Part shown: positions 2,586 through 41,505 of the stretch, piece after piece | Layout: every line of letters starts with the position of its first letter | Position numbering within the stretch: the first letter of the stretch is position 1 | DNA from: an uncultured candidate division WWE3 bacterium | Lineage (GTDB): Bacteria > Patescibacteriota > WWE3 > UBA101185 > UBA10185 | Direction: 5' to 3' | Assembly: GCA_963765125.1 (NCBI GenBank) | Contig: CAVXUZ010000005.1 | Span: forward strand, 97,596-161,595 | DNA length: 64,000 bases | The notes under the pieces: model-generated | Told to the model about the DNA's origin: nothing | What the model saw: the letters and a program-made list of their open reading frames with translations, nothing else | Databases searched by the model: none | Position numbers and translations under genes: made by a program

Positions 2586-2945
2586 TTACTTATTAAAGGT
2601 TTCTTTTACTTTAAGTACTACCTGTTCAAATGCGCTGGGTTGGGTTACAGCCAAATCTGATAGTGATTTTCTGTCTAATTCAATTTTTGCTGTTTTTAAA
2701 CCTTTAATAAATGTACTGTAGTTTACTTCAAAAGGTTTCAATGCAGCGTTTATTCTTACAATCCAAAGTCTTCTCAACGCTCTTCGTCTTATTTTTCTTC
2801 CACCAAATGCGCGCTCGCCTGATCTAAGAACAGCCTCATGAGCTCTAGCAAAAAGCTTGCTTCTTGTTCCTCTATAACCCTTAGCAAGTTTTACAATTTT
2901 TGCATGTTTTGCGTGTTTTCTTTGTCCGTTTTTAACTCTAGGCAT
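2586..2945 (-). CDS. rplT: 50S ribosomal protein L20
   Basis: 119-aa basic protein [26 protein letters not shown]...; sits in the infC-rpmI-rplT operon. Confidence 0.95.
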
Positions 2946-3141
2946 GATTTCCTAACATCTTTCTTAATTTTTTAATATGACCTTTATTGCCTACAGATAC
3001 TTTTCTTAGTTTTCTAAATCTTTTACTGGTGCTCCATTTAACTTTAAGGTGGCCGGTATTTATTTGGCCATGAACAAGTTTTCCTGTTTTTGTAACTCTA
3101 AATCTTTTTAGTAATGTTTTTCTTGTTTTTAGTTTTCCCAT
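2938..3141 (-). CDS. rpmI: 50S ribosomal protein L35
   Basis: 67-aa Lys/Arg-rich [24 protein letters not shown]... between infC and rplT. Confidence 0.9.
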
Positions 3142-3145
3142 ATTT

Positions 3146-3691
3146 TTATATTTTCACGAACGTTGCCGTAATTAAATTACCTTTTAGCTTTATATCGCGC
3201 TCTTCTACCTTTGCTACGTCCCTTAACTCATTAATTACGTGCTCAATCTTTTTCATGCCGATATCTGGGTAGATCATTTCTCGGCCTTTGAACTTGACGC
3301 TAATTTTAACCTTATTTCCCTCTAAAAGAAACTCCCTAGTTCTTGCGATTCTGACTTGAAGGTCTCCTTCGCCAATTGTGGGTCCAAAGATAAACTCTTT
3401 AATCTCACTTTTATGCGATTTTGCCTTAACAGCCGACATCTTTTTACGTTCTTCGTATAAAAATTTGCTGTATTCAAGTATTTTCGCAACGGGAGGATTA
3501 GCTTTTTCAGAGATTAAGACTAAATCCAATTCCTCATTTCTTGCTCTTCTCAAAGCATCTTGAGTACTAACAACACCGATGTTTTCGCCTTTGCTACCAA
3601 TCAATCTTACTTCAGGCGCCCTGATTCTCTCATTGACGAAGTGTTTTTCTCGCTTAAAGTAACGGTTTGCCTGTTTAAAAATAAATGCCAT
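3146..3691 (-). CDS. infC: Translation initiation factor IF-3
   Basis: 181 aa with IRAPEVRLIGSKGENIGVVS... typical of IF3 N/C domains; lies immediately after thrS. Confidence 0.9.
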   Translation of the reverse strand: MAFIFKQANRYFKREKHFVNERIRAPEVRLIGSKGENIGVVSTQDALRRARNEELDLVLISEKANPPVAKILEYSKFLYEERKKMSAVKAKSHKSEIKEFIFGPTIGEGDLQVRIARTREFLLEGNKVKISVKFKGREMIYPDIGMKKIEHVINELRDVAKVEERDIKLKGNLITATFVKI

Positions 3692-3706
3692 ATTCGCTTA
3701 TGATTT

Positions 3707-5503
3707 TTACCACAGCTTGAGGCTTCTGGTCAAATAGATATTTTTAATTGTCTCAATTACCTCATCTATTTGAAGGTCGTTTTTCTGCTCTCCAGTTCTT
3801 AACCTGATACTCAATTTATTACTTTGGGCTTCCTTGTCACCTAAAACGATCATATACGGTATTTTTTGGTTTTGAGCGTCTCTGATCTTTGCTCCCATAG
3901 ATTCACTTTTATCATTCAGTTCAACTCTTAACCCTGCCTCGATTAACTTACTTTTCACAGTTTTTGCGTATTCTACGTGCTTATCGCTGATCGTAATAAT
4001 TTCTATTTGGATTGGTGATAGCCAAACTGGGAAATTACCACCGTAATGTTCGATTAAAAAGCCGACAAATCTTTCATGACTGCCGAGTGGAGCACGGTGA
4101 ATTACTGCACAAAGTTTCTTTTCACCATTCTGGTCGGCGTACTCGAGACCGAATCTGGTAGGCATATATAAATCGAGTTGATTTGTCGATATTGAAAATT
4201 CTCTACCGATTGATGAAATAATATTAAAATCTATTTTAGGTCCATAAAACGCTGCGCCACCGATGTCTTCAACTGTTTTAATTCCTGATTTTTCTATTGC
4301 GCTTCTCATAATCTTTTCTGCGAGGGCCCAGGTTTTCTTATCGCCGTGATATTTATCCCACTTTTCTGGATCAGGAAGACCTATGACAATGTAGTAATCG
4401 TCTCTGCTCAAACCTAAAATCTCATAATAATATTCATGTAGTTTAATTACGTCCAAAAACTCCTTTTCAGCGTCTTCCATCGTGCAGTAAACATGTGCAT
4501 CGTTTTGTGCAATCGACCTTACTCTCATAAGGCCAAAAAGTGTTCCAGATTGTTCAAACCTGTAAACTGTGCCGTATTCAGCATATCGTAGGGGTAAATC
4601 GCGGTATGATTTGGGCGAAGACTTAAATATTTCATGATGATGAGGGCAGTTCATGCCCTTAAGGTAATAGTCTTCGTCGTCAATGGTCATGGGGCTGTAC
4701 ATATCATCTTTGTAATATGGAAGGTGCCCTGAAATCTCATAAAGTTTACCTTTTGCAATATGCGGTGTAGCAACTCTGACATACCCCCACTCCTTTTCGG
4801 TTTCTTTTGCCCATCTCTCAAGCTCTTCCCTAATTACAGTTCCTTTAGGGGTCCACAAAGGAAGACCTGGGCCAACGTTATCTGAAAAAGTAAACAAATC
4901 TAACTCTTTGCCTAATTTTCTATGATCACGTTTTTTTGCCTCTTCTAGTCTGTTTAGGTAATCATCGAGTTTTTCTTTAGTCTCAAATGCGGTAGCATAA
5001 ATTCTTTGTAGCATTTTATTTTTTTCACTGCCTTTGTAGTAAGCTCCTGCTACGCTTAAAAGTTTAAACGCCTTTACGTCACCGGTTTTTTTCGTGTGGT
5101 GGCCCATACACAAATCCACGTCTCGTGGTTTTTCTTTATCTCCCATTACGCAGATAGTAATGTCCTCACCTCTTTTAACGATTTCATCTAGATTGTTCAG
5201 TTTATATTCATTTCCTTTAAATAACGCTTTAGCTTCTTTTTCGGTTACCTTCTCCATTTTTAACGGTAAATCAGCGTCGATAATCTCCTGCATTCTTTTT
5301 TCTATGGTTGGAAAGTCTTCGGGGCTAATAATTGTATCCAAATCAAAATCAAAGTAAAAACCATGCTCAATTGGCGGCCCCATAACAAGCTTAATATCAG
5401 GGTAAAGCTCACGCATTGCCGTATGAAGAACATGTTCAGCTGAATGCCTTAGTGGCATTAATGGATCATCTTTTAACTTTTCGATTACTTTTTCTTTTGA
5501 CAT
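3707..5503 (-). CDS. thrS: Threonine-tRNA ligase
   Basis: 598 aa with class II core motifs (YRFEQSGTLFGLMRVRS, GGAAFYGPKIDF) and the anticodon-binding C-terminus. Confidence 0.95.
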   Translation of the reverse strand: MSKEKVIEKLKDDPLMPLRHSAEHVLHTAMRELYPDIKLVMGPPIEHGFYFDFDLDTIISPEDFPTIEKRMQEIIDADLPLKMEKVTEKEAKALFKGNEYKLNNLDEIVKRGEDITICVMGDKEKPRDVDLCMGHHTKKTGDVKAFKLLSVAGAYYKGSEKNKMLQRIYATAFETKEKLDDYLNRLEEAKKRDHRKLGKELDLFTFSDNVGPGLPLWTPKGTVIREELERWAKETEKEWGYVRVATPHIAKGKLYEISGHLPYYKDDMYSPMTIDDEDYYLKGMNCPHHHEIFKSSPKSYRDLPLRYAEYGTVYRFEQSGTLFGLMRVRSIAQNDAHVYCTMEDAEKEFLDVIKLHEYYYEILGLSRDDYYIVIGLPDPEKWDKYHGDKKTWALAEKIMRSAIEKSGIKTVEDIGGAAFYGPKIDFNIISSIGREFSISTNQLDLYMPTRFGLEYADQNGEKKLCAVIHRAPLGSHERFVGFLIEHYGGNFPVWLSPIQIEIITISDKHVEYAKTVKSKLIEAGLRVELNDKSESMGAKIRDAQNQKIPYMIVLGDKEAQSNKLSIRLRTGEQKNDLQIDEVIETIKNIYLTRSLKLW

Positions 5504-32192: not shown

Positions 32193-32753
32193 TTATTGCA
32201 TTAGTGGAAAATCCCTGCTCTCCGTAATTTGGGTGAAGGTATCATTTAGTATTGCGAATGTTATGGTGTTCAAGTTAAAGGTAAAGTCAAAGTTTAAGTT
32301 CTTAGCTTCTTCTAAAGCCTGTTTATATAACGGTTCATCTAAGGGTACTTTTGTCGGATTTTTCAGATCGTATTGAGCGTTCTTATCTACAAACTGGCCT
32401 AGTCCAACATGTGGTATAAATTCAATATCTTTTCTTAAGAATTGTTCAAGCATCCCTGTATATAAGATATCGTGCAATTTAATTATTTCCTCCCTTCCTT
32501 CTTCTAAGGTTAAAAATAAGAAGTTATCCCAGGATTTAGTTAGACCTTTAATGTGTGCGTTAAAGCTTTTAAAACTCTTCAACCTATCTCACACATGTTC
32601 TAAAAGTAAATCCTCAGAGATCGATTTAGCTGAGATTGGAAATACTATAGTTACATGTGGCCTAATAAGATTGAACTGTGTGTCGTACTTTTTTCTGAAA
32701 CCATCTATCTTATCCAATTCAGATTTTACATACGCTACTAAAACAAAATACAT
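32193..32753 (-). pseudogene. 2H-phosphoesterase (LigT/CPDase-like) gene with an in-frame TGA at 32589-32591
   Basis: The upstream segment MYFVLVAYVKSELDK...RPHVTIVFP (H-x-T-x motif 1) is in the same frame as ORF 32193-32582 (..FIPHVGLGQF, motif 2), separated by a single TGA. Confidence 0.5.
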
Positions 32754-32782
32754 ATTTGCAATTCTATATTAAAATCTCCAAA

Positions 32783-32802
32783 AGTTCGACTCCCTCATGG
32801 GT
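32783..32802 (+). repeat. 20-nt direct repeat agttcgactccctcatgggt (inverted partial copy of the tRNA-Leu T-loop/acceptor)
   Basis: Matches agttcgactccctcttgggt at 36550-36569, one mismatch, same orientation, 3.77 kb apart. Confidence 0.55.
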
Positions 32803-32869: not shown

Positions 32870-33487
32870 CTATTGCATTGCTGAAGTACCACTTAGATGA
32901 GATGTATCGTCAAATACAACTGGTGTAATTGTATTTTCCTCAAAGTCAAAGATTGAGATTGAAGCATTCTTTGGATCGTACTTGAATGATTCTTTTTTAG
33001 GTACTGACAATAAATAAGGCATTAGTGCTCTAATAGATCCTCCGTGAGTTACTATTCCAATTACAGCATTACTATTATCAGTATTTACTTGTTTAATATT
33101 ACTTATAAGTCGATGTTCGAAGTCTTTCCATGACTCACCTTTAGGCGGTACGAAGTCATAACGCTGTTCAAGAGATAACGGATCAAGAACAGTTTTTATT
33201 TCAGACCAGGGTTTTCCTGAATAATCTCCCCAGTTCCTTTCTTCCATGCCTGTAAGCGGTATAACTGGTATATTGCAAATCTTACTGATTATTTCAGCAC
33301 TTTGTAGTGCCCGAAATTCATTAGATGCATATAAAACATTGCAATTCAGTTCTTTCAACTTTTCACTTGTCTGTTGTATTTGTCTTATACCATTTTCAGT
33401 TAAATTATCAGGATCACCAAACTTATGTAACACATTTTTAACATTTGTTGCAGTTTCACCGTGTCTTACTAAAATTAATCTATTCAT
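32870..33487 (-). CDS. Histidine phosphatase-family protein (phosphoglycerate-mutase-like)
   Basis: N-terminal LVRHGETATN catalytic RHG motif; 205 aa. Confidence 0.7.
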   Translation of the reverse strand: MNRLILVRHGETATNVKNVLHKFGDPDNLTENGIRQIQQTSEKLKELNCNVLYASNEFRALQSAEIISKICNIPVIPLTGMEERNWGDYSGKPWSEIKTVLDPLSLEQRYDFVPPKGESWKDFEHRLISNIKQVNTDNSNAVIGIVTHGGSIRALMPYLLSVPKKESFKYDPKNASISIFDFEENTITPVVFDDTSHLSGTSAMQ

Positions 33488-33564
33488 TAGGATATTTTAA
33501 CAGAAAGTTCTAAATTCTCTCTTGGGTATATAAAAATAATGTTGTTGTGACAGTGTAAATTCTT

Positions 33565-33917
33565 TGGTGGGCGAGGAGGGAGTCGGTCACATGTTTTTCA
33601 TCTCTAGCTCATTACACTCGCAAGATCTGAAAGCATTCGATCCCGCCTCCTTCACTTCGTTCAGTCCGGTATTCGCCTCCTACTTTTACCAACAAAAAAG
33701 TGTCCATCAAACCTTTAGGTCTGCTGTACACTTTTCTGGTGGGCGAAGAGGGAGTCGGTCACCTGTTCTCGCCTGCTGGCTCGCCAGTCGACCCCGGCTC
33801 GGCACCGTCGTGCCTGCGCCTTTCGCCTCCCTTACTAGTCATAAGAAAAAAATATCCGGCATTGTAGCCGGCTATCTTTTTCTGGTGGGCCATCTGTCAG
33901 GATGTGCGAACTGCTTT
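33565..33917. repeat. Tandem att-scar-like array: two 26-nt tRNA-Leu(UAA) 3'-end duplicates, each followed by a core element, then hairpin plus 30-nt repeat copy 2
   Basis: tggtgggcgaGgagggagtcggtcac at 33565-33590 and tggtgggcgaagagggagtcggtcac at 33737-33762. Each is followed by a core related to 36599-36715. CCGGC-attgta-GCCGG hairpin plus T-run at 33856-33885, then the 30-mer at 33888-33917. Confidence 0.65.
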
Positions 33918-33955
33918 AGTTACTATTAACTACTAAAAAGTCTTAAAATAGATAT

Positions 33956-34798
33956 ATGTTGTATCATAGTGTCATGGAATTAAAAACAGCTAAGTTACAA
34001 AAACATTTCTACATGTACTGCGCGATGTTTTACGCAGATAATCGTACTATCGGTCATAAAGATTGGGTCTCAGAACTTAAAGATAAAGTTATTACTGCAC
34101 TTGAGAAATCAAACACACCAAAACTAGATATGCCCATGCATAGCTACCATTACCTTATGGGAATATTTAATCCAGAAGGTTACGAGGACCATGGGAGATT
34201 AATGATTCCTCCTAAAGAAGTTTTAGATTATGTTGAGCGAGTATCCGCACTCCCGGAATTACAAGAAATATGGAAACAATACGAGCCTGATTTTGATACT
34301 AGACTTAAGGATTTTGAGGAGCGTTTTATTGATATAGAAAACCTTTTTAAAAACCATTTTGATTATGAGCCTGATATTAAAACCTTTTATTTAACAAGAA
34401 ATTGGGATACATCGGGAAAATGTATTATAACTAAAGATGGTTACTACATTTTAGTTGGGTGGAAAAAAGAGGGCATAAATTTAAACCAAATACTACATGA
34501 ATTAACTCACAGTTATTTAGATAAATGTACATTAACCATTCCGAGGGACGTAAACGATTACCTTAAAAAAATGCCAGAGGAAGTTTTAGGATCTTATGCG
34601 AATCCCCATGCTTATATAGAAGAATCCATAATCCGGGCACTTGTATTGTATTTAAGTCATTCGGAAGAAAATATACAAAACTATTCTTTAGTAGGAACCG
34701 ACTTGGATATGATATTACCTGCAAAGTACTTAGATGTTTTGGAAAAAGATAAGCCCGAAAAGTTAACTATAGAATATCTCAATAAACTAGCCTATTAA
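33956..34798 (+). CDS. Hypothetical HExxH protein (putative zinc metallopeptidase)
   Basis: 280 aa with QILHELTHSY; adjacent to the Cys-rich peptide/rSAM pair. Confidence 0.45.
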   Translation: MLYHSVMELKTAKLQKHFYMYCAMFYADNRTIGHKDWVSELKDKVITALEKSNTPKLDMPMHSYHYLMGIFNPEGYEDHGRLMIPPKEVLDYVERVSALPELQEIWKQYEPDFDTRLKDFEERFIDIENLFKNHFDYEPDIKTFYLTRNWDTSGKCIITKDGYYILVGWKKEGINLNQILHELTHSYLDKCTLTIPRDVNDYLKKMPEEVLGSYANPHAYIEESIIRALVLYLSHSEENIQNYSLVGTDLDMILPAKYLDVLEKDKPEKLTIEYLNKLAY

Positions 34799-34888
34799 TA
34801 AACATTATTTTTGCTAAGAAAAGGTAAAGGGACTACTTCCAAGTGTATAAGAAGTAATCCCTTTTTTGGTGACGCTTGCCGGTAGTCT

Positions 34889-35050
34889 TTAGTCTTTTGG
34901 ACAGGACTGATCGTGCGGGCACGGGTCGTTGGTATTGCCACTGCAGGAATGCCCAGAACAATCTGACGAACACTTGCCGTCGGAAGGGCAATCAGCAAAG
35001 GCAGCTAACTGAGGTTGCCAGCGAACAACTTGCGTGAAATCGGTACCCAT
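34889..35050 (-). CDS. 53-aa six-cysteine RiPP-precursor-like peptide (SCIFF-like), not in the ORF track
   Basis: AAGGAG RBS 8 nt upstream of the ATG at 35050, 19 nt after the rSAM stop. Product MGTDFTQVVRWQPQLAAFADCPSDGKCSSDCSGHSCSGNTNDPCPHDQSCPKD. About 50% GC in a ~33% GC genome. Confidence 0.6.
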   Translation of the reverse strand: MGTDFTQVVRWQPQLAAFADCPSDGKCSSDCSGHSCSGNTNDPCPHDQSCPKD

Positions 35051-35069
35051 TGTCGTTTTCTCCTTTCTT

Positions 35070-36401
35070 TTAGAATTCGGACAACATGTCTTGTAGAAGC
35101 AGTAGCTTCACAATTATACAAGACTCTTGAAAAGTGTTCTCGCCTAAGTATCTAGAAATCGGACAGAAACCTTGGCAATTCCACCTTGCAAAACAATTTG
35201 AACACAGGTTTTTAGGTAATCCTCCATGTACCACAATGCGTGCGTGAGCATCGGGATTCATTACAGGTACCTGTGTGGTAGACCCAAAACTTCCATAGAA
35301 GAACAGTTCAGAGCCTGGATGCTGCTTCTTTGTGATACGCGAGCATCCGGAGACTGAACCATCGGGGCATACGCAAAACATTGTGCCTGTACTTGCTCCA
35401 CAGAATTGTAATTTATCTCTGCGGAATGTATCCAAAGTGCAAACAACGCGTAAACCTAGTTCCACTCCTATCCTACGAGCTTCTGTGTAGTATTTTACAA
35501 AAAGCCCCGGATCAACATCTAAATCAGTGGCGCCACTTGCTTTACCACAAAGTGATAGCGGCTCAAAGTGCACGAGTCCGTTCACTCCGTTTAACGCTTC
35601 TTTAGCAAGGAACCTTACAAAATTCGGCATTTCCTCCACACTCTTACTTGTTACTGTGGCACGAATAGAAAATGCTAGGCCAGCAGCCTTCAGATTTGCA
35701 ACCCCTTTCATGGCTGCTTTGAAAGAACCTTTGCCACCTACCATAGGGCGTTGCAGGTCTTGCACTGTTGCGACACCATCCAATGAGATTGTGATGTTAT
35801 CAACATTGTGTGACTTCAGCCATTCTGCAAACTTTGTAGTAATCAGTGTGGCGTTAGTCACTATGCTCACATGCAGTGTTATATCAAGCTTCTCGGCCAC
35901 TTGTAAGGCGTATAGGACGCATACCTTGAGCAGATTCTTTCGCTTCAGAGATTCCCCACCACCATGAAATGTTAGGGTGAAGTGTTTTCTGCCGCGGGAC
36001 TGTGCTAAACGCAATGCATAACTTATTGCGTTCTTTGCTACATCTTCAGGGATAGTTGTAGAATCACAACCCGCCTTTGCGTAGCAGTAGATACACCGAA
36101 GATTGCAGTCGTTGGTTAAAGATAAAGTAATTCCTTGCTCCCCAGGTAACGATTGAGTCGGTAAAGACCAATGTTCCGGAAGTGCGAGTAACCCGTTATC
36201 TGAAAGAAACTTAACCATAACTGGGTTGAATCCGTCTGCAGTACTGCCTTCTGAAACTGCAGAAATTAGCGTCTGAAGTTGTTCTGCTCCGCCTTGTGAT
36301 AACTTGGTTACCAAGCCATGCAATGGGGCATACAACAAGAAAGACGGTTCGTTCGGATACAGAATAAGAAAAAGCCAATCTTTAGGCTTTAGTGTGTCCA
36401 T
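35070..36401 (-). CDS. Radical SAM / SPASM-domain peptide-modifying enzyme
   Basis: CNLRCIYCYA (CxxxCxxC) and a C-terminal Cys cluster (CGASTGTMFCVCPDGSVSGC...CSNCFARWNCQGFCP) typical of SPASM. Start moved to MDTLKPKD (GAGAGGAG RBS). GC-richer than the surrounding sequence. Confidence 0.8.
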   Translation of the reverse strand: MDTLKPKDWLFLILYPNEPSFLLYAPLHGLVTKLSQGGAEQLQTLISAVSEGSTADGFNPVMVKFLSDNGLLALPEHWSLPTQSLPGEQGITLSLTNDCNLRCIYCYAKAGCDSTTIPEDVAKNAISYALRLAQSRGRKHFTLTFHGGGESLKRKNLLKVCVLYALQVAEKLDITLHVSIVTNATLITTKFAEWLKSHNVDNITISLDGVATVQDLQRPMVGGKGSFKAAMKGVANLKAAGLAFSIRATVTSKSVEEMPNFVRFLAKEALNGVNGLVHFEPLSLCGKASGATDLDVDPGLFVKYYTEARRIGVELGLRVVCTLDTFRRDKLQFCGASTGTMFCVCPDGSVSGCSRITKKQHPGSELFFYGSFGSTTQVPVMNPDAHARIVVHGGLPKNLCSNCFARWNCQGFCPISRYLGENTFQESCIIVKLLLLQDMLSEF

Positions 36402-36549
36402 CGCATCTTTTCTCCTCTCGATGATTATTTGATTTGTTGGCGTATTTATAGCATGAAAATGGCAATACCTCAATTTAAGATCTATTAACATGAGGCTATC
36501 TTTTTTTAAATGTGGGAAAATATAATTAAGTTTATGCCGTAAACACAAG

Positions 36550-36598
36550 AGTTCGACTCCCTCTTGGGTATTTGGTGGGCGAAGAGGGAGTCGGTCAC
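36550..36598. repeat. Inverted-repeat hairpin built from the tRNA-Leu 3' end: 20-nt repeat (36550-36569) plus 26-nt 3'-end duplicate (36573-36598)
   Basis: GTTCGACTCCCTCTT-gggtatttggtgggcg-AAGAGGGAGTCG, a perfect 12-bp inverted repeat. Confidence 0.65.
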
Positions 36599-36715
36599 AT
36601 GTCTTTCAACTCTAAATTCGCTCAAGCTCATTAAGATTTGAAAGCATTCGACCCCGCCTCCTTCACTCACTTCGTTCGCTCAGTCCGGCATTCTCGTCTC
36701 TCCTCAAAATGAAAA
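36599..36715 (-). repeat. Conserved ~115-nt non-coding core element (tRNA-3'-end-associated mini-element, copy B)
   Basis: gtcacatgtctttcaactctaaattcgc(tc)aagctcattaagatttgaaagcattcgacccc... is about 90% identical to 41362-41470 next to tRNA-Trp, with diverged copies at 33591-33700 and 33763-33850. Confidence 0.7.
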
Positions 36716-36749: not shown

Positions 36750-36835
36750 TGGTGGGCGAAGAGGGAGTCGAACCCTCACGTCCTAATGGACAAGAGATTT
36801 TAAGTCTCTCGTGTCTGCCATTCCACCACTCGCCC
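36750..36835 (-). tRNA. tRNA-Leu (anticodon TAA), long variable arm, CCA encoded
   Basis: Manual fold: anticodon loop CUUAAAA, T-loop UUCGACU, 3' CUCUUCGCCCACCA. Confidence 0.85.
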
Positions 36836-37534: not shown

Positions 37535-38578
37535 ATGGAAGGGTTAGGTATTTACGGAGGTTGGTTGACGGTAAACCGCTTTTGTAATTTTAGATGCGGC
37601 TGGTGTTACGCTAAGGGGACAAAATTTAAATCAGAAGATAGTATGTCTGTTGAGCTTGCTAAGAATCTGATTAATTTGATGCACACAATTGGAGTTCATA
37701 ACGTAATACTTATCGGCGGAGAAACTTTGTTTTGGCCCCACTTGTTTTCTATCGCGACGTACATTAAGTCTCTAGGTATGACGAGTGCGGTTGTTACAAA
37801 TGGCTGGTTGTTGGGATTTGAAAAGTTTCGAAAAAAAGTAGAGACCTCAGATATTACTTCTCTCAGTATTTCACTAAAAGCAGGTAACAGGCACCAATAT
37901 GAGAAGCTAACTGGCTTTGATGGATTCGAAAAGGTAGTTGATGGTCTTCGCGAAGTTTCCAAGTGGAAAAACATAAGGGTGGAAACCACAACCGTTGTGA
38001 ACACAGAAGTACTAAGGAATATTGATGAGATAGCAAAGTTGGCGTTTGATAACGGGGCAGAATCTTTCAACATCTCAATGTGTGGTCCAGTGATTAGCGA
38101 TGGTGTATTTGACAACCGATTTGTTCCAGAACCAAAAGATGTTGTGAATACATTTTTGAGTAAATACGAATTACTTCATTCGCTAAGTAAAGGAAAATTT
38201 TCTATCGAGGCAGCACTTCCTACCTGTCTTTGGCCAAAGGAGTTTTTACATAAGCTGGAAGAAAACGATCAGATATCTTATGGGTGTCACTTTAAAACGA
38301 GAAGTGGGGTCATCTTTGACAGATTAGGTAGAATTATACCGTGCAATCAGCTTTTCGATTACCCTATGGGGCAATATGGCGAAGACTTTACAGATCTAGC
38401 TAGCTTTTCCGAAGTTTGGAATAGCCCCCAGCTAAATGCATTTTATGATAAAATGCTTGAGTACCCAGCAATAGCCTGCGTTAAATGCGGCGAATTTGAT
38501 AAGTGTGGCGGTGGTTGCCCACTAAACTGGTTTGTTAGGGATCCAGAGACAGTAATAGAAAAAGGAGAGCGCGTATGA
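37535..38578 (+). CDS. Radical SAM / SPASM-domain enzyme (second copy), translationally coupled to a Cys-rich peptide
   Basis: CNFRCGWCYAKG CxxxCxxC and C-terminal CVKCGEFDKCGGGCP SPASM-like cluster. Start moved to the ATG at 37535 (GAGGAGG RBS). The stop TGA overlaps the peptide ATG (ATGA). Confidence 0.8.
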   Translation: MEGLGIYGGWLTVNRFCNFRCGWCYAKGTKFKSEDSMSVELAKNLINLMHTIGVHNVILIGGETLFWPHLFSIATYIKSLGMTSAVVTNGWLLGFEKFRKKVETSDITSLSISLKAGNRHQYEKLTGFDGFEKVVDGLREVSKWKNIRVETTTVVNTEVLRNIDEIAKLAFDNGAESFNISMCGPVISDGVFDNRFVPEPKDVVNTFLSKYELLHSLSKGKFSIEAALPTCLWPKEFLHKLEENDQISYGCHFKTRSGVIFDRLGRIIPCNQLFDYPMGQYGEDFTDLASFSEVWNSPQLNAFYDKMLEYPAIACVKCGEFDKCGGGCPLNWFVRDPETVIEKGERV

Positions 38579-38745
38579 ACGCAAATCTAATGGATTTGGC
38601 TGCACAAAGAAAGAGCACCGGTGTAGTTCTAGACAAGCGTCCTTCAGGTAATCAAACTAAGACGATTATTATGGGGCATTGTCAGTGCAGATGCGCAAAT
38701 TGCAAATGTAATTGCTTTTGTGCGCAATGCAAAGCTAGTTTGTAA
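38575..38745 (+). CDS. 56-aa Cys-rich RiPP-precursor-like peptide (8 Cys in the last 20 residues), not in the ORF track
   Basis: AAGGAG 7 nt upstream. Product MNANLMDLAAQRKSTGVVLDKRPSGNQTKTIIMGHCQCRCANCKCNCFCAQCKASL; ATGA overlap with the rSAM stop. Confidence 0.65.
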   Translation: MNANLMDLAAQRKSTGVVLDKRPSGNQTKTIIMGHCQCRCANCKCNCFCAQCKASL

Positions 38746-41267: not shown

Positions 41268-41505
41268 GGCAAATCGTCGCTAACGCTCCTATTGCATCTC
41301 AGAGTTCTAAAGCTCACTTTGTTCGCTAAGTGCTTTGGAGCGGAAAACGGGATTCGGTCACATGTCTTTCAACTCTAAATTCGCAAGCTCATTAAGATAT
41401 GAAAGCATTCGACCCCACCTCAGTCGCTTACGCTCCTTCCGGCATTCTCGTCCCCTATTCCCCATGAATAAGCCCACTAACCCTTTGGGTTACTGCGCAT
41501 CTTCA
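41268..41505 (-). repeat. tRNA-Trp-associated mini-element: core copy C (41362-41505), 26-nt duplicate of the tRNA-Trp 3' end (41336-41361), then trailer-repeat copy (41268-41335)
   Basis: tggagcggaaaacgggattcggtcac duplicates the T-loop-to-CCA segment of the adjacent tRNA-Trp. The core is about 90% identical to 36599-36715. The trailer aaagcacttagcgaacaaagtgagc...gcgacgatttgcc resembles the trailers after tRNA-Val and tRNA-Leu(TAG). Confidence 0.7.

Follow-up and report, generated by a model that had tools for sequence, protein, structure and literature searches.

A conserved radical SAM maturase, Cys-x-x-Asp peptide and HExxH protein cassette in a candidate division WWE3 bacterium

Introduction

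Which peptide does a radical S-adenosylmethionine (rSAM) enzyme of an uncultured bacterium modify, and with what chemistry? The question is raised by a locus in a 64,000-nucleotide stretch of DNA from a candidate division WWE3 bacterium (assembly GCA_963765125.1, contig CAVXUZ010000005.1, positions 97,596 to 161,595 of the forward strand; hereafter the window), in which the gene of an rSAM/SPASM enzyme is followed by an open reading frame (ORF) for a 53-residue peptide with six cysteines and, in convergent orientation, by a gene for a protein with an HExxH motif. A sequence-only reading of the region had paired enzyme and peptide as a SCIFF-like maturation system, proposed the HExxH protein as a candidate leader peptidase, ascribed the raised GC content to horizontal acquisition, and grouped the pair with a second rSAM gene nearby. 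We find that the three genes form a conserved cassette, which is a new branch of the known thioether/ranthipeptide-type class of peptides that are made by the ribosome and modified after translation (RiPPs), defined by Cys-x-x-Asp repeats. We further hold it to be probable, with reservations weighed below, that the cassette represents an unnamed PapB-like clade which makes Cys-Asp β-thioether rings on Cys-x-x-Asp motifs, with the HExxH protein as the probable leader peptidase.

Results

The precursor gene

Enzyme and peptide genes lie on the minus strand as the sequence-only reading had described them (Table 1), the enzyme carrying CNLRCIYC and C-terminal SPASM cysteines. From the TAA stop codon of the rSAM gene, 19 nt (AAGAAAGGAGAAAACGACA) with an AAGGAG ribosome-binding site lead to the ATG of the peptide, whose full sequence is MGTDFTQVVRWQPQLAAFADCPSDGKCSSDCSGHSCSGNTNDPCPHDQSCPKD. 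Its first 20 residues constitute the leader, with the motif DFTQVVRWQPQL, and residues 21-53 the core, which comprises the segments CPSD, CSSD, CSGHS, CSGNTND, CPHD and a C-terminal CPKD; the six cysteines, at residues 21, 27, 31, 36, 44 and 50, have 3-7 residues between them. Four of the six are followed by Asp at position +3, where composition-preserving shuffles lead one to expect 0.8 (p ~0.001). A scan of the peptide against NCBIfam returned no family at E ≤ 0.1.

For comparison, we surveyed 12 non-redundant genomic contexts in which the rSAM is 39-91% identical to that of the window; labels used below denote, by rSAM identity, L004 (91%), L166 (70%), L165 (56%), L100 (45%), L168 (41%) and L173 (39%). 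An AAGGAG or GGAGG site, a gap of 12-19 nt and the peptide frame are kept in L004, L001, L166, L165 and L100, at rSAM identities of 45-91%, and orthologues of the peptide itself were recognized in L004, L001, L166 and L165 and as P0136, P0138 and P0139. A competing out-of-frame ORF of 67 residues, which had been listed over the peptide, does exist in the window. Judged by sequence comparison, the 53-residue ORF is a genuine gene under purifying selection, since its divergence from the L004 orthologue is pS 0.55 at synonymous and pN 0.084 at nonsynonymous sites, while stops interrupt the rival 67-residue frame in L004, L001, L166 and L165. The exact peptide and two variants differing by 1-8 residues are, moreover, already recorded as called proteins.

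Because of the 19-nt gap, the peptide's own ribosome-binding site and a hairpin terminator after the peptide, the rSAM gene and its precursor would most likely be co-transcribed. The hairpin has a long loop; it was missed by the terminator scan and was folded directly, giving -22.3 kcal/mol (z = -3.3), with none of 200 shuffles equally stable. Upstream of the rSAM gene, we read by eye a possible sigma-70-like promoter of low weight, which the consensus promoter scan did not report. Both kinds of signal found by the scans were near shuffle expectation, with 4 promoter-like sites against 6.7 ± 2.9 and 4 terminator-like sites against 2.1 ± 1.4.

Conservation of the enzyme-peptide pairing

A small Cys/Asp-rich ORF adjoins the rSAM gene in each of the 12 contexts; in 11 it lies directly downstream, and L173 has one on either side of the enzyme. 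Together with the coding signature of the peptide, this upholds the pairing of maturase and precursor that had been read from the sequence. The cores themselves differ widely in sequence, and their cysteines number from 2 to 19. What persists is an acidic residue three positions behind the cysteine: Asp or Glu stands at +3 after 89 of 124 core cysteines, compared to 13-18 at each other offset from +1 to +6 (13 at +4). The coupling is nearly absolute in two relatives with 44-45% rSAM identity (17/18 and 17/17 cysteines, p < 1e-4), whose peptides have a cysteine at every fourth residue (CxxDCxxD...). The leader is marked as well: all 15 peptides contain a motif of two hydrophobic residues, any residue, Trp and one of Gln, Gly, Asn or Asp, which reads VVRWQ in the window peptide.

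Pattern-based scans of genomes and metagenomes yielded mostly relatives of 25-33% identity among the matches listed. At about 30% identity, rSAM relatives carry other kinds of Cys-rich peptide, including unlike cores such as CSCNxVCTC...CVPVH, or none downstream (39/126 usable loci), indicating that the CxxD rule marks a clade and not the whole superfamily.

Two of the more distant contexts hold further peptides. In L173, precursors with CxxD repeats lie on either side of the rSAM gene, at 2689-2913 and ~4330-4640, the downstream one having 19 cysteines and being missing from the gene calls of the source record. In L168 (5861-7337), and likewise in L169, a second, unrelated rSAM of 436 residues converges on the first and has its own 52-residue peptide, ending in CFVCDCDCHCNEKCDCYCD, from which it appears that paired rSAM/peptide modules recur with different partners.

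The maturase

The 443-residue enzyme contains a Radical_SAM core recognized by Pfam (63 bits), in which CNLRCIYC covers residues 99-106 and C99, C103 and C106 are invariant across 43 relatives. In the same set, the C-terminal SPASM-type cysteines C334, C353, C400, C403, C409, C413 and C428 are invariant or nearly so. With CX3CX2C and a C-terminal CX2CX5CX3C...C motif both present, the protein has the features of a SPASM-domain member; the Pfam SPASM model gave no match at E ≤ 0.1, and alignments to PapB, CefB and CteB do cover the region. In the AlphaFold2 model (predicted local distance difference test score 92), the N-terminus forms β-strands at residues 11-14, 20-25 and 30-35, followed by helices at 36-50 and 60-68. 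This unit of three strands plus helices resembles the leader-binding units of such enzymes, termed RiPP recognition elements (RREs), and may serve the same role here.

Its best NCBIfam match was PapB (NF047865; 124.2 bits over residues 90-415, cut-off 340), followed, in every case far under the cut-off, by the nif11, CefB, QhpD, geopeptide and SCIFF maturases. The rSAM of a 45% identical relative gave the same order, with PapB first at 134.6 bits. Neither protein reaches the PapB cut-off and, with 124 bits being so far below 340, the window enzyme is not a PapB-family member. Sactipeptide maturase models stayed far under cut-off too (RumMC, 79 of 720 bits; StsB, 70 of 625 bits). By sequence and fold, the closest protein in the PDB is CteB (5wgg/5why; E 1e-17, TM-score ~0.7, full length), with a Foldseek alignment of 450-471 columns spanning approximately the whole protein. 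Homologues number 136 among 5.8 billion protein clusters and are named 'radical SAM protein' or similarly generic at most. These results place the enzyme among RRE/rSAM/SPASM peptide maturases, outside every curated family; the closest of its characterised relatives form thioethers that link Cys to non-α carbons.

Proposed chemistry

The arrangement, an rSAM/SPASM maturase beside a leader-bearing, Cys-containing precursor, is that of a ranthipeptide system in the broad sense. Among characterised systems, PapB/PapA, which makes freyrasin in Paenibacillus polymyxa, is among the closest parallels: PapB is an rSAM/SPASM maturase, its model aligns to the window enzyme over ~325 residues, and the core of PapA is a run of cysteines with Asp or Glu at a fixed short distance. 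PapB connects the Cys sulfur to C-β of Asp or C-γ of Glu in six CX3D/E motifs and in vitro takes CXnD with n = 0-6, and so also CX2D, reaching completion at n = 1-5 (PMC9413430). Unlike PapA, the window peptide is in the CxxD and not the CxxxD register, a test for Cys-X3-Asp/Glu repeats having failed; the cassette further differs in its Trp-motif leader, its enzyme-then-peptide order, its DUF4932-like HExxH partner and its AT-rich uncultured hosts. The same chemistry is known from QhpD, which forms Cys-Asp (C-β) and Cys-Glu (C-γ) thioethers on a protein subunit (PMC8326336) and whose model, TIGR03906, is the fourth match of the window rSAM and the third of the 45% relative. However, the window enzyme scores 99.2 bits where the cut-off is 453, QhpC is a subunit of an enzyme and not a leader-bearing RiPP, and no qhp or dehydrogenase genes lie near the cassette. 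A further likeness concerns the CXXX-repeat targets (TIGR04115/TIGR04117): the peptides of the 44-45% relatives have a cysteine at every fourth residue, and TIGR04117 weakly matches the peptide of a 35% relative (E 0.007). The TIGR04115 maturase model, in contrast, has a cut-off of 350 bits but gives 56 with the rSAM of the 45% relative, and it is outside the best 25 matches for the window rSAM.

We propose that Cys-Asp rings are formed because the pairing of cysteine with an acidic residue at +3 persists while the rest of the core drifts, as expected of reaction partners. In such a scheme, the leader (residues 1-20) would be bound through its VVRW motif by the RRE-like N-terminal domain of the enzyme; the Cys sulfur would then be joined to the acceptor carbon, with the SPASM auxiliary clusters assisting, and the convergent HExxH protein would most likely remove the leader. 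The product would be a string of small in-line thioether rings, Cys21-Asp24, Cys27-Asp30, Cys44-Asp47 and Cys50-Asp53, possibly with Cys36-Asp42, and hence a ranthipeptide of the PapB/freyrasin type in the Cys-x-x-Asp instead of the Cys-x3-Asp register. The reality of the peptide gene, the conserved pairing, the CxxD/E and leader motifs and the architecture and nearest relatives of the enzyme are direct results of the comparisons; bond type, ring pattern, leader binding and peptidase role are deduced.

Several observations weigh against this proposal. C31, in CSGHS, is without a nearby acidic partner, and the acceptor is replaced in some orthologues (CASN in P0139, CPNH in L166). The homology to PapB is distant (124 bits against 340), other cross-link makers (nif11, CefB, geopeptide, SCIFF) score only moderately lower than PapB, and the Cys-Asp bond itself would have to be read from a motif plus this distant homology. 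Finally, 4 of the 12 related cassettes are without an HExxH partner within 3-4 kb. One can ask whether the enzyme makes another cross-link on the same peptide, either α-carbon thioethers as in sactipeptides or bonds to acceptors other than the +3 Asp; the role of the Asp residues would then lie in solubility, metal binding or recognition. The scores of the enzyme against RumMC, StsB, CcpM and CefB overlap the range of its non-PapB thioether matches, and the ~30% relatives do pair with very different Cys-rich cores. Nevertheless, so strict a coupling of cysteine and +3 acid amid a changing core fits reacting partners, as in PapA and QhpC, while known sactipeptides rely on distant, nested acceptors, and we regard a different cross-link as unlikely.

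The HExxH partner

The HExxH neighbour, which the sequence-only reading had rightly picked out, is a genuine recurrent partner of the cassette, probably with a zincin-like fold; its gene is, however, convergent (tail-to-tail) with the peptide gene and not divergent, and the protein would have 274 instead of 280 residues, its start being likely the ATG at 33974 and not at 33956, as all homologues are of ~274 residues and begin at the equivalent ATG. The family is small: 5.8 billion proteins yielded 11 clusters of it, and a set of 1.84 billion yielded 15 representatives. H175, E176, H179 and E216-E217 are invariant in it; the Glu pair, 37-38 residues past the second His, presumably fits the third-ligand pattern of gluzincins, in terms of sequence spacing and not of coordinates. 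In 7 of the 12 contexts, the most distant of them with an rSAM of 44-45% identity, the protein follows the peptide tail-to-tail. In an eighth (43% rSAM identity), a bona fide DUF4932 protein (PF16286, 45.5 bits) adjoins the rSAM gene and aligns to the 274-residue family over HExxH and EExxxRA (hhalign probability 84%, E 7.5e-6).

With DUF4932 proteins and with ChlH, BpmH and PflC, the protein has in common the HExxH motif, a likely zincin-like fold and the place next to an rSAM maturase, and it may be called distantly DUF4932-like. Unlike those proteins, it has no match at E ≤ 0.1 in Pfam or NCBIfam save a spurious DUF2779 (E 0.068), and with ~15 representatives worldwide it is rare. Foldseek found no significant match in the PDB, and a profile search against PDB sequences gave noise. 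The company of ChlH, BpmH and PflC raises the possibility that the protein is a tailoring enzyme dependent on Fe(II) and α-ketoglutarate, for example an Asp β-hydroxylase or an oxidative cleaver, and not a peptidase. Its lack of family matches extends to the α-ketoglutarate-dependent HExxH hydroxylases (IPR026337-type), classical zinc peptidases outrank ChlH, the invariant Glu pair would speak for a gluzincin, and hydroxylation at C-β of Asp would compete with the thioether there; we therefore consider this role quite unlikely and the protein probably a leader peptidase.

In L001 (7617-9678), three HExxH proteins stand in a row after the peptide: the 274-residue protein (HELTH), one of 226 residues (HELNH) without a Pfam match, and a SprT-like one of 126 residues (HELVH). 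Such a row suggests that small metalloproteins recur as a set around the cassette.

The second rSAM cluster and the SCIFF comparison

The second rSAM/SPASM gene of the window is likewise followed by a Cys-rich peptide and an HExxH protein (Table 1), and the sequence-only reading had seen in the two rSAM/peptide pairs a possible duplicated two-peptide system whose enzymes share an unusual CxxRCxYCYAK motif. The latter does not hold: the second motif reads CNFRCGWCYAKG, with W in place of Y, and CNLRCxYCY occurs at least 600 times in the genome collection (462 rSAM relatives among the matches listed), so that the shared CxxRCx(Y/W)CYAK string is generic. The pairs are 1.1 kb apart, and in both a Cys-rich peptide comes directly after the rSAM, with an HExxH protein close by; homologues of the 130-residue SprT-like protein occur just beyond the 274-residue gene of first-type cassettes, at 0.1 kb in L165 and 0.9 kb in L001, and L168 also has a second, unrelated rSAM with an adjacent peptide. 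Against these points, the two enzymes are 26% identical over 205 residues and differ in length and architecture (443 residues with an RRE-like domain, 361 without), the two peptides are unrelated, as are the two HExxH proteins, and genes for tRNA-Leu, a HIT protein and tRNA-Arg lie between the pairs. The loci L001, L004, L100, L165 and L166, which carry the first cassette at 45% rSAM identity or more, contain no relative of the second rSAM, and the 56-residue peptide and the 130-residue protein are singletons in a collection of 15 billion proteins. By these comparisons, the second cluster is an unrelated RiPP-like cluster and not a recent duplicate of the first, and a cooperating two-peptide system is very improbable.

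There remains the SCIFF (six cysteines in forty-five) system, with an ScfB-type maturase and a Cys-to-Thr thioether. The likeness is that CteB, which with CteA forms a SCIFF pair, is the closest structure (TM-score ~0.7, N-terminal domain included) and a thioether-forming rSAM/SPASM enzyme acting on a six-Cys peptide of ~50 residues, as the window enzyme would on its six-Cys, 53-residue peptide. SCIFF peptides usually precede the maturase gene, while here the rSAM gene comes first. Membership is nevertheless extremely improbable and close to refuted by model scores, as the precursor model TIGR03973 is among the NCBIfam families without a match, the enzyme scores 85.6 bits on TIGR03974 (cut-off 425), over residues 91-253 only and below its PapB score, and the conserved core is CxxD/E, whereas the SCIFF peptide is highly conserved in a different sequence and linked from Cys to Thr. 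The earlier label 'SCIFF-like' survives only in a loose, thioether/ranthipeptide-type sense, in which some reviews also term freyrasin a SCIFF (PMC8326336).

Composition and mobility

The GC content is indeed raised in the rSAM gene (0.446) and the peptide gene (0.531), compared to 0.364 ± 0.034 in 43 other long ORFs of the window, and so is GC at third codon positions (0.40 and 0.52, background 0.31 ± 0.05). The HExxH gene, in contrast, is host-like (0.331). The orthologues of 70-91% identity, L004, L001 and L166, whose flanks are different, show this split as well. In L165 the excess is confined to the peptide, and in the 41-42% relatives it has faded. GC content is for these two reasons weak evidence of transfer; we rejected it as evidence on its own, and the step from GC richness to horizontal acquisition finds no support in it alone.

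The repeats at tRNA-Leu 3' ends point to mobility better than composition does. Two exact 24-nt direct copies of GACCGACTCCCTCTTCGCCCACCA flank the cassette, and each terminates a conserved element of ~110 nt with the core GG(A/T)GG(C/T)GGGGTCGAATGCTTTCA...GAATTTAGAGTTGAAAGACATGTGAC. Of the element's dispersed copies, all on the minus strand, each ends in the last 20-24 nt of the nearest upstream tRNA, which is tRNA-Leu for three and tRNA-Gly for one, the latter copy lying downstream of tRNA-Gly and ending in its 3' end. Since the cassette is bracketed by tRNA-Leu 3'-end repeats and the tRNA-Gly copy matches tRNA-Gly, integration at tRNA 3' ends is indicated, and the element looks like a miniature integrase-less element, or the remnant of one, that targets them. 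Rfam, at the gathering threshold over the whole window and at E ≤ 1 over 33450-33960, returned six tRNAs and nothing for the repeats, and the 2.8-kb cassette contains no integrase.

Recent acquisition is opposed by the 45% relative, which keeps the order PH-like gene, tRNA-Gly, HIT, tRNA-Arg, tRNA-Leu, rSAM, peptide, HExxH. In L100 and L165, where the rSAM gene also abuts a tRNA 3' end, we found no att-like repeats. On viral contigs, scanned with the HExxH profile and with the rSAM, we found no relatives and hence no sign of phage origin.

Three observations were made alongside. A large serine recombinase (Resolvase, Recombinase and Zn_ribbon_recom domains) stands in L166 at 2625-3932 beside the HExxH gene of the 70% cassette, followed by a HIT gene. 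A 25-nt inverted repeat near the left boundary, 80% complementary, consists of the tRNA-Leu 3'-end duplicate and an opposite tRNA-T-arm-like fragment (GTTCGACTCCCTCTTGGG), with a similar fragment on the plus strand further away; these may be scars of further integrations. A gene for a LigT-like 2'-5' RNA ligase is split by a stop into ORFs of 54 and 129 residues and may be a pseudogene or reflect a sequencing frameshift.

Table 1. Cassette, neighbouring genes and repeats, in positions of the window
Feature	Position	Strand	Basis or remark
rSAM/SPASM peptide maturase gene	35070..36401	minus	443 aa; N-terminal RRE-like domain, rSAM core, SPASM domain
CX3CX2C radical-SAM cluster motif (C99, C103, C106)	36084..36107	minus	direct sequence reading
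SPASM auxiliary-cluster cysteines C334 ... C400-x2-C403-x5-C409-x3-C413 ... C428	35118..35402	minus	sequence and alignment to PapB model through region
Predicted leader-binding (RRE-like) domain, residues ~8-70	36192..36380	minus	AlphaFold2 model; putative function
Precursor peptide, 53 aa	34889..35050	minus	ORF directly downstream of rSAM
Peptide leader, residues 1-20	34991-35050	minus
Peptide core, residues 21-53	34892-34990	minus
AAGGAG ribosome-binding site of peptide, 9 nt ahead of ATG	35060..35065	minus	sequence
Competing out-of-frame 67-aa ORF	34795-34998
15-bp perfect hairpin, then U-rich tract	34825..34865	minus	RNA fold; likely terminator common to peptide and HExxH genes, which converge
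Possible sigma-70-like promoter TTGAGG-17 nt-TATAAA upstream of rSAM gene	36445..36473	minus	read by eye; low weight
HExxH protein, 274 aa (HELTH 175-179, EES 216-218)	33974..34798	plus	zincin-like, distantly DUF4932-like; candidate leader peptidase
tRNA-Leu(UAA), 3' end toward cassette	36750..36835	minus	ARAGORN and Rfam
24-nt direct repeat, left att-like boundary	36573..36596	minus	exact; last 21 nt are tRNA-Leu 3' end
24-nt direct repeat, second copy, right att-like boundary	33737..33760	minus	exact
~110-nt element copies	36571-36715, 33735-33885, 33563-33712, 41336-41470	minus
Second rSAM/SPASM enzyme, 361 aa	37493-38578	plus	no RRE-like N-terminus
Nine-Cys peptide, 56 aa (…GHCQCRCANCKCNCFCAQCKASL)	38575-38745	plus	overlaps second rSAM's stop by 4 nt
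SprT/M76-like HExxH protein, 130 aa	38834..39226	plus	weak Pfam matches to M76 and SprT
25-nt inverted repeat	36541-36606
tRNA-T-arm-like fragment	32779-32802	plus
Split LigT-like gene	32193-32753	minus	54-aa and 129-aa ORFs

Discussion

The window cassette joins a maturase that no curated family accommodates, a precursor whose cysteines are coupled to an acidic residue at +3, and a small family of HExxH proteins. No exporter or immunity gene, and no function, is evident near it. Going further than the thioether chemistry proposed above, one can imagine that peptides with Cys-x-x-Asp repeats, up to 17-19 of them in relatives, and a hydrophobic-x-Trp leader form a RiPP family of their own, not yet described and restricted to small, AT-rich bacteria that are uncultured. 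Their product would consist of four-residue Cys-Asp thioether rings in a ladder, their partner would be a new zincin-fold enzyme family of ~15 representatives with an activity maybe beyond simple proteolysis, and the cassette would be the cargo of a miniature integrase-less element targeting the 3' ends of tRNA genes. We put this wider picture forward tentatively and think it doubtful as a whole. Patescibacteria are among the hosts of the more distant relatives.

These results overturn nothing, as the pairing of an rSAM/SPASM enzyme with a Cys-rich peptide is a frequent and expected one. If the proposed chemistry is true, the clade would supply natural maturases tuned to the Cys-x-x-Asp register, and some of their substrates would carry 17-19 consecutive rings; PapB is already a tool for making thioether-stapled peptides. 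The clade also brings a well-supported RiPP pathway, and with it an HExxH partner not classified before, to organisms whose gene repertoires are very small and in which the conservation of a secondary-metabolite cassette has to be explained by some function.

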